Virus record (IMG/VR): IMGVR_UViG_2695420521_000002
Coordinates: 32,001 to 96,000 of that record
Length of the DNA stretch: 64,000 nt
Origin: a virus
Lineage: Duplodnaviria; Heunggongvirae; Uroviricota; Caudoviricetes
Strand: one strand, 5' to 3'
This document shows, piece by piece, positions 49,792 through 50,826 of the stretch (position 1 is the stretch's first letter; every line of letters starts with the position of its first letter). A program made the translations under genes and the position numbers. The notes under the pieces are model-generated. The model did not search any database and was not told where the DNA came from. It saw only the letters and a program-made list of their open reading frames with translations.

Positions 49792-50826
49792 TTAACCTAT
49801 TGCTACTGGTTTTAACAAACCAGCATCAAGTAGCTTGCGAGTTAACCACTGCTGGCCTTTACCCGTTAATTGGGGCGTCAGCCGTATCTGATAGCCATTT
49901 TCATCATCCAGCACCACTTCTTTCACCGTGAAATACCCGGCGTTAATGTACTGCTGGCGCGGTACGTTTTTGCGCGCACCAAAAGCCATGAGAATGCCGT
50001 TCTGGCGCAACCATGAGAAAAGGGCGTTTTGCTTAAGTCCAACGACCTTTGCAAAGTTCCCGATCAGGATTCCATTAGCCACTGATACCCGGTCGGCAAA
50101 ATCGACTTTAGGGGCAGCGGCCACCAGCTGTTGTTCCAGCTGCATTTTCTGTTCTGCCAACTCGGCAGCCAGGCGTAGAGCTTCTGGTAATGTTTGGGGG
50201 ATCTATGGGGTAGGGGAGTTTGCCTGCTGCAATTCTTCCAGTTTGTCGATCAGCGAACGGCGGACCGCTTTTGACTCGCGCGCGGCAACTCGCAGAGCTT
50301 GTTTGTAGGTCATGGTTATAATATCTATTTCTGCGCCGTTTTTTTGACCTACGAAAATTTCGTAGGTTTCTCCTTCAAGCTCATCCTTAACTCTGGCAAT
50401 GAAATCATTGTTGCGAACTGGTTTTTCGCTACATAATTTCCGTGCCTCATTGACCATCTTCAACAATGTTTGGCTGTCGATTGTGTCTCCGGTGTTGGGG
50501 ATGACATTCAGGGCTGGTGCTGGCGTAGCTGAAGCAACAGGTGCTGGTTTTTCAACATTTAAATTATTACCGGTCATTCTATGTGCCTCCTTTCTCATTT
50601 CTGCTGCCACTGTTGCGTAACGTAGACGTCCTTGTTCAATCAAATAATCCCTGATCTCGGCTATCAGTAGCCTGTTGATCACAGCCTTATCTGTTCGGGT
50701 ATAAAAACGTCTGGTTATCATGAAATAGTTGGCAATTGCGCCGGGGATCTCCCGTGTCGGCATACAGGTTGTATGCAAAGCGATCGCTTCGGCTATTTCA
50801 TTACGGGTGACGAGAGGTGTTTTCAT
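49792..50826 (-). pseudogene. ant: antirepressor ant interrupted by in-frame TAG
   Basis: 207-aa N-terminal ORF and 122-aa KilAC ORF are in the same frame, separated by TAG (plus-strand cta at 50203..50205) and 14 codons. Confidence 0.5.

Follow-up and report, generated by a model that had tools for sequence, protein, structure and literature searches.

Riedel et al. reportedly showed in 1993 that the Ant1/Ant2 complex of phage P1 binds and inactivates the C1 repressor, and Heinrich et al. are said to have found in 1994 that P1 c4 and virs mutants are rescued by second-site mutations in ant or icd, with c4, icd and ant being interdependent. Ant1/Ant2 is one of two antirepressors that act on C1 in P1; it binds and inactivates this repressor, and C4 RNA normally prevents its production (PMC8546580). 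In a genome-wide CRISPRi screen of P1, both ant1 and ant2 were non-essential (PMC10695390). A natural disruption has been described in the P7-like Klebsiella plasmid pMCR_SCKP-LL83, where ISApl1-mcr-1 is inserted in ant1 (PMC5786510). With this in mind, we analysed an interrupted ant frame in a stretch of 64,000 nucleotides (hereafter the window) that originates from a P1/P7-like (Punavirus, RCS47-like) plasmid prophage, contig CYGK01000014.1 of GCA_001286565.1. The locus is a null allele (pseudogene) of P1/P7 ant1/ant2 and no functional member of this family. Very probably, it carries one recent and private TCG(Ser208)-to-TAG substitution in an otherwise intact immI region, which makes it an unremarkable null allele of a gene that the phage can do without.

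On the minus strand, the elements follow each other in the order C1 operator, a1/b1, c4, icd, ant, C1 operator, kilA and repL, and the order is the same in RCS47 and P1. The ORF map, Rfam, the operators and the annotated relatives place the frame in the operon position of ant1/ant2 of P1/P7 immI. The features are listed in the direction of transcription:

51359..51375, minus strand: C1 operator upstream of c4 (Op51 equivalent), one mismatch to the consensus; P1 annotation
51246..51298, minus strand: a1/b1 element of the operon leader, a target of C4 (Rfam RF03163, c4-a1b1, 55.5 bits)
51197, minus strand: G to A private to the window, in the c4 precursor leader some 24 nt upstream of mature c4; G in all 45 relatives compared
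51092..51177, minus strand: C4 antisense RNA gene of P7/RCS47-type specificity, intact (Rfam RF01695, 69.6 bits)
50823..51044, minus strand: icd, 73 aa (NCBIfam phage_ICD_like, E=3.9e-14; annotation of relatives)
49792..50826, minus strand: ant1 frame (immI operon of P1/P7 type), interrupted at codon 208; relatives have 344 sense codons
50203..50826, minus strand: truncated Ant1 ORF, 207 aa, N-terminal region and central domain without KilAC (phrog_63 positions 13-222)
50575..50577, minus strand: nested in-frame Ant2 ATG, codon 84, with AAGGAGG at 50592..50586; truncation would leave 124 aa
50203..50205, minus strand: premature amber codon, Ser208 TCG to TAG, mutated base 50204
49792..50202, minus strand: 3' part of ant, linker helix and KilAC (Pfam match about 50136..49828; first restart codons TTG 50160 and ATG 50145)
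49697..49713, minus strand: C1 operator of the kilA-repL promoter (Op53 equivalent), downstream of ant (operator consensus match; P1 annotation)
48827..49627, minus strand: kilA, 266 aa, KilA-N and KilAC, intact (ORF map, Pfam)
47955..48797, minus strand: repL, 280 aa, intact (ORF map)

Allowing at most two mismatches, the C1-operator consensus ATTGCTCTAATAAATTT has 10 sites in the window, between positions 45 and 51375, against 0.02 expected.

The counterpart of the 1251 nt around the frame is annotated as icd and ant1/ant2 in RCS47, P7 and P1, at nucleotide identities of 98.2%, 94.8% and 93.2%, respectively. The ant1 gene of RCS47 comprises 1035 nt, exactly the length of the window frame, and the end-to-end alignment to the intact 344-aa protein of p1303_95 yields 99.1% amino acid identity with one stop; hence, the two ORFs are no chance juxtaposition. 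Besides identity over the whole length, the frame shares two further hallmarks with the P1/P7 genes. First, the TGA of icd overlaps the ATG of ant1 as ATGA (50826..50823, minus strand, read directly from the sequence), which we interpret as a translational coupling as in P1. Second, the nested Ant2 start has its own Shine-Dalgarno sequence, and its position agrees with the annotated ant2 start of P1 and RCS47. The nearest annotated copy, RCS47 ant1 (CDN90796.1, 344 aa), is alike in locus, neighbours, length, KilAC and the Ant2 start with AAGGAGG. In its c4 recognition sequences, the window follows the P7/RCS47 type and not the P1 type, and it shows no difference from RCS47 in c4 or in the a2/b2 targets of c4. 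What sets the window apart from P1, P7 and RCS47 is codon 208, which is TAG here and TCG there, such that it encodes neither full-length protein: in place of an uninterrupted ORF of 344-349 codons ending in KilAC, the frame is stopped by this amber codon.

Translation of 49792..50826 (minus strand) gives 345 codons, laid out as an ATG-initiated run of 207 sense codons, TAG, the 14 codons IPQTLPEALRLAAE, a 122-aa ORF starting from TTG, and TAA. An earlier, sequence-only reading of this DNA had described a 207-aa ORF and a 122-aa KilAC ORF in one frame, separated by TAG and 14 codons, which our translation bears out; its statement that a full-length antirepressor cannot be made without suppression also holds, given that TAG is codon 208 of the window frame. 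That reading left unrecognised that the gene is ant1/ant2 of P1 immI with a nested Ant2 start, so that two proteins are truncated: Ant1 would shrink from 344 to 207 aa and Ant2 from 261 to 124 aa, both ending at P207. In the mechanism that we propose, translation from the icd-coupled ant1 start and from the internal ant2 start would both end at codon 208, yielding 207-aa and 124-aa fragments that lack KilAC, and the remaining 414 nt would not be usefully translated. The canonical Ant1/Ant2 antirepressor against C1 would thereby be lost or crippled, while C4 RNA, and hence immI immunity in trans, would be kept. Some activity, either partial or dominant-negative, might remain in the truncated Ant fragments.

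In the C-terminal piece, Pfam recognises a complete ANT/KilAC domain (PF03374, E=1.7e-31), with the match starting at residue 231, and the two pieces map to adjoining parts of phrog_63 ('anti-repressor Ant'), namely positions 13-222 and 226-365. The N-terminal 207 aa match no Pfam or NCBIfam family even at E values up to 10 and are named by PHROGs alone; a PDB sequence search gave nothing meaningful. The match of the central domain to phrog_1726 ends at residue 203, and the module common with a second, 371-aa Ant of the window (see below) starts at I209. These boundaries would place the stop in the linker between the central domain and the KilAC module. The IPQ(S/T)LPEALRLAA motif of the shared module is also found in the KilA translation.

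We next consider where the amber codon stands among relatives. In the alignment, RCS47, phi456 and P1 all have TCG (Ser) where the window has TAG, and there is no indel; the lesion is one C-to-A change on the coding strand, equivalent to G-to-T at 50204 on the plus strand. As comparators we used 83 genes, from 80 IMG/VR loci encoding relatives and three reference phages, and the homologue comparison as a whole rests on more than 150 loci. The sequence-only reading had considered that the two-ORF form might be the conserved state among homologues, which the comparison contradicts: 80 of the 83 genes have an uninterrupted ORF of 344-349 codons, and codon 208 is TCG in all 83, including all 80 IMG/VR relatives. 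The three exceptions are a nonsense mutation at codon 65, a +1 frameshift in an A-run directly after the ATG, and a contig end. Within the same comparison, the two copies from the source isolate are the only ones with TAG at codon 208.

Searches of public collections gave a consistent picture. A 41-nt pattern containing TAG had no match in IMG/VR, GTDB (one genome per species) or JGI metagenomes, while the same pattern with TCG matched 37 metagenome contigs and one genome contig. These 38 contigs, chosen by the TCG pattern itself, served as positive control; where the frame was closed on both sides of codon 208, it was intact in 28 of 32. Among 5,426 complete E. coli genomes and 72,556 plasmids, megablast found no 55/55 match to a 55-mer containing TAG; TCG alleles also match this query, at 54/55, so that a TAG call needs 55/55. 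The TCG version is matched exactly by 78 E. coli genome records. In a 153-billion-gene index, exactly the 207-aa product is encoded by just two contigs, CYGK01000014.1 of GCA_001286565.1 (99,399 bp) and a contig of the Logan assembly of run ERR178190, which agree with the window at every position, TAG included, over 6.6 and 3.9 kb, respectively.

Such a restricted occurrence raises the question of whether the TAG is a sequencing, assembly or laboratory-passage artefact and the wild isolate has TCG, as could be expected of an allele seen in a single isolate only. Yet the NCBI record and the Logan contig of ERR178190 are identical across the site, the change is a substitution in non-repetitive sequence rather than a homopolymer indel, and other ant nonsense alleles exist in independent complete plasmids. 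We thus regard an artefact as quite improbable. As the NCBI and Logan assemblies probably derive from one sequencing run, the mutation could nonetheless have originated in laboratory culture.

A genuine TAG could still be compatible with function if the gene were expressed in two parts. According to this reading, the N-terminal fragments and a KilAC polypeptide started from TTG 50160 or ATG 50145 would jointly act as antirepressor, in line with the suggestion of the sequence-only reading that the copy is expressed as two polypeptides. The location of the stop, exactly between the end of phrog_1726 (residue 203) and the start of the KilAC module at I209, fits this view, as does phrog_9438, a family of stand-alone KilAC proteins with a length of about 121 aa. 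The start sites argue otherwise. The computed anti-SD duplex energies are -9.9 kcal/mol for the ant1 start and -11.6 kcal/mol for the ant2 start, but -1.5 kcal/mol for the downstream TTG (+45 nt) and -3.7 kcal/mol for the ATG (+60 nt), both of which have a weak Shine-Dalgarno sequence or none. Furthermore, the restart codon nearest to the stop is an unproductive TTG 27 nt upstream of it. Separate translation of the KilAC part is hence judged unlikely. The two-ORF arrangement, finally, is conserved in no relative, all of which deviate from a stand-alone KilAC protein such as phrog_9438 in having one continuous ORF.

Listeria AriS (AntA/B plus KilAC) offers a functional parallel, as it is, like Ant, a two-domain regulator with a C-terminal KilAC. 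The KilAC of AriS is active alone when over-expressed, which would favour a functional split, whereas AriS lacking either domain at native expression, including removal of KilAC, behaves as a full null (PMC9043618). Loss of function in the window fits the latter observation, since single-domain deletions of AriS behave as null at native expression. AriS is, however, a distant Firmicutes homologue with another N-terminal domain, and its KilAC inhibits SOS, an activity established for AriS and not for P1 Ant. Altogether, a functional split appears very unlikely, and the two-polypeptide alternative is not supported.

The other way to rescue function would be to read through the TAG, owing to natural leakiness or to an amber suppressor of the host, giving useful amounts of full-length Ant. 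The TAG is followed by A, and the downstream frame is fully intact. In E. coli, suppression is favoured by an A after TAG if a suppressor tRNA is available; amber suppressors are rare in natural isolates. The tRNAs of the element are Met/Ile(CAT), Thr(TGT), Asn(GTT) and a doubtful Ser(TGA), and neither Rfam nor ARAGORN finds a tRNA with a CUA anticodon (amber suppressor) in the element. The stop is also not conserved, unlike a programmed site, such that neither mark of programmed readthrough or suppression, a conserved stop and a cognate tRNA, is found. Of all readings considered, we hold readthrough to be the least probable. The tRNA-Ser(TGA) (29540..29626, minus strand) is called by ARAGORN only; Rfam does not list it at gathering score, and p1303_95 has no such annotation, so that a false positive or a degenerate tRNA is the probable explanation.

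Returning to the preferred reading of a plain null allele, the surrounding sequence bears on its age. Compared with 12 relatives of equal length, the window ant has four private substitutions, three in synonymous Ala codons and the stop. Since the stop is the sole private change in ant besides the three synonymous ones, the lesion should be recent. Among about 79 ORFs common to the window and p1303_95, no real gene other than ant contains an internal stop, the remaining flagged ORFs being antisense or unannotated. These comparisons indicate an isolated, recent mutation in an otherwise well-kept prophage. The sequence-only reading had proposed that the copy is decaying, of which the inactivation stands while decay is overstated for a single recent point mutation without other lesions. 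For intact ant genes, dN/dS amounts to 0.19-0.29 over the whole gene and to 0.09-0.11 for the stretch downstream of codon 208 (values for the length classes of 1035 and 1044 nt are inflated, probably by ungapped misalignment, and were left out). By these ratios, intact ant genes are under purifying selection, and since the part after codon 208 is the most constrained in intact relatives, Ant function should suffer from its loss.

The window allele is not alone. We found Q65* in NZ_CP059910.1 and IMGVR_UViG_2609460060_000003, K286* (window numbering) in CP057740.1, and an IS1 after nt 276 of ant in NZ_CP062905.1 and at least seven other PLSDB records. The same nt-276 IS1 junction occurs in one metagenome contig, while two further ones show another IS1-like junction, near codon 143. 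Of 42 full-length loci taken at even intervals from the PLSDB hits, 3 are disrupted; overall, about 7-10% of the sampled natural P1-like ant loci are disrupted and about 90% are intact. Like the window allele, Q65* and K286* each arise from one base change in a P1-like plasmid whose ant is otherwise intact, but Q65* lies upstream of the Ant2 start and hits Ant1 only, and K286* lies inside KilAC, whereas S208* of the window takes KilAC off both proteins, exactly at the linker. The IS1 and ISApl1-mcr-1 disruptions likewise affect ant of P1/P7-like phage-plasmids and leave the remainder of the prophage in place; insertions near codon 90 split off the promoter-proximal part, whereas the window DNA stays collinear and revertible. 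The window allele is one more of a known class of independent ant-null alleles. This class is about as frequent as might be expected for a dispensable gene, while purifying selection in the intact majority argues against a general relaxation. The finding is real but ordinary.

The recurrence of such alleles raises the possibility that the null was selected, in that loss of Ant stabilises the plasmid-prophage state or compensates a weakened C4 control. Repeated, independent inactivation of ant in natural P1-like plasmids speaks for this, as does a parallel with the classical P1 c4/virs mutants and their ant/icd suppressors. Additionally, the sole window-private substitution in the 504 nt upstream of ant1, at 51197, lies in the c4 precursor leader, where it removes two base pairs and weakens the predicted leader hairpin by 3.6 kcal/mol (from -57.6 to -54.0 kcal/mol). 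However, C4 RNA, a1/b1, a2/b2 and icd are identical to RCS47 or common to relatives, and the predicted fold of the mature C4 body is unchanged by the 51197 change. Purifying selection on intact ant, with about 90% of natural copies intact, also stands against it, and 7-10% of nulls in a dispensable gene need no positive selection. Laboratory P1 ant mutants resemble the window allele in that Ant loss is compatible with lysogeny and lytic growth, but they were selected in a c4-defective or virs background, whereas c4 of the window looks intact. A c4 defect that forced an ant suppressor is possible, yet there is no evidence for it. In all, we consider a selected null unlikely. The alternative that the 51197 substitution creates a good promoter was rejected by eye, as the best -10-like hexamer, CATAAA, has no properly spaced -35.

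A broader version would be a recurrent, selected locking-in of P1-like phage-plasmids, in which ant nulls are favoured by lower spontaneous induction. The independent nulls to which this would apply are S208*, Q65*, K286*, the frameshift, IS1 at two sites and ISApl1-mcr-1. Locking-in might apply especially where a second c4-icd-ant module provides a differently controlled route of induction, and in the source isolate it might be linked to the private c4-leader SNP. All three nonsense-bearing plasmids also carry a second ant-like copy, which, at a base rate of about one half, is only a hint. We regard this generalisation as speculative and as somewhat less likely still than selection of the window allele itself.

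That the loss is tolerated follows, on the preferred reading of an ordinary null, from the dispensability of ant for P1 growth and lysogeny, and possibly also from a second, intact module of the window, whose features are:

1587..3185, minus strand: intact immI-like second module between c1 (703..1554, plus strand) and pacB
3276..3260, minus strand: C1-operator-like site just upstream of the second module (operator consensus)
3185..3107, minus strand: isrK of the second module (Rfam)
3062..2975, minus strand: C4-family RNA of the second module (Rfam, 76.7 bits)
2920..2699, minus strand: Icd-like ORF of the second module (NCBIfam Icd-like)
2702..1587, minus strand: 371-aa Ant, ORF6N and KilAC, intact (Pfam)

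The neighbouring c1 is a full ORF of 283 aa (703..1554, plus strand). The same insertion of a second module is annotated in RCS47 and has already been described for pTZ20_1P (PMC6906374). The 371-aa Ant shares 56% amino acid identity with Ant1, the first 84 and the last ~135 residues being close homologues. The sequence-only reading had correctly noted that the central regions of the two differ: the middle of the 371-aa Ant is an ORF6N domain, and that of the kilA-linked window Ant1 is an unrelated domain. The two C4 RNAs of the window are dissimilar in sequence, and the two modules are therefore probably controlled separately. Two further Ant architectures were encountered among relatives. 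CP090076.1 encodes, at 12507-13916, an intact 469-aa chimeric Ant with the Ant1 central domain and ORF6N before one KilAC, apparently a recombinant between the two ant types, and another relative locus has a different N-terminal fusion of Ant.

In practical terms, the two ORFs are best annotated as one ant1/ant2 pseudogene with an amber codon at position 208. For the isolate, we predict a prophage without the canonical Ant escape from C1, yet with C4-mediated immI immunity. The C1 regulon of the element looks intact, and the second module may be the only antirepressor route left. Beyond this isolate, independent disruption of ant in about 7-10% of loci bears on the inducibility of phage-plasmids, which are often carriers of resistance genes.

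Two cargo genes of the window are worth recording. Just downstream of repL lies a 171-aa gene for an outer-membrane beta-barrel of the Ail/Lom family (47357..47872, minus strand). A 1211-aa inverse autotransporter of the intimin/invasin family (IAT_beta, Big_1, Invasin_D3; 8910..12545, minus strand) occupies the place of humD in p1303_95, of which the last 30 codons remain at 8514..8603; this autotransporter is probably virulence or adhesion cargo of the plasmid prophage.
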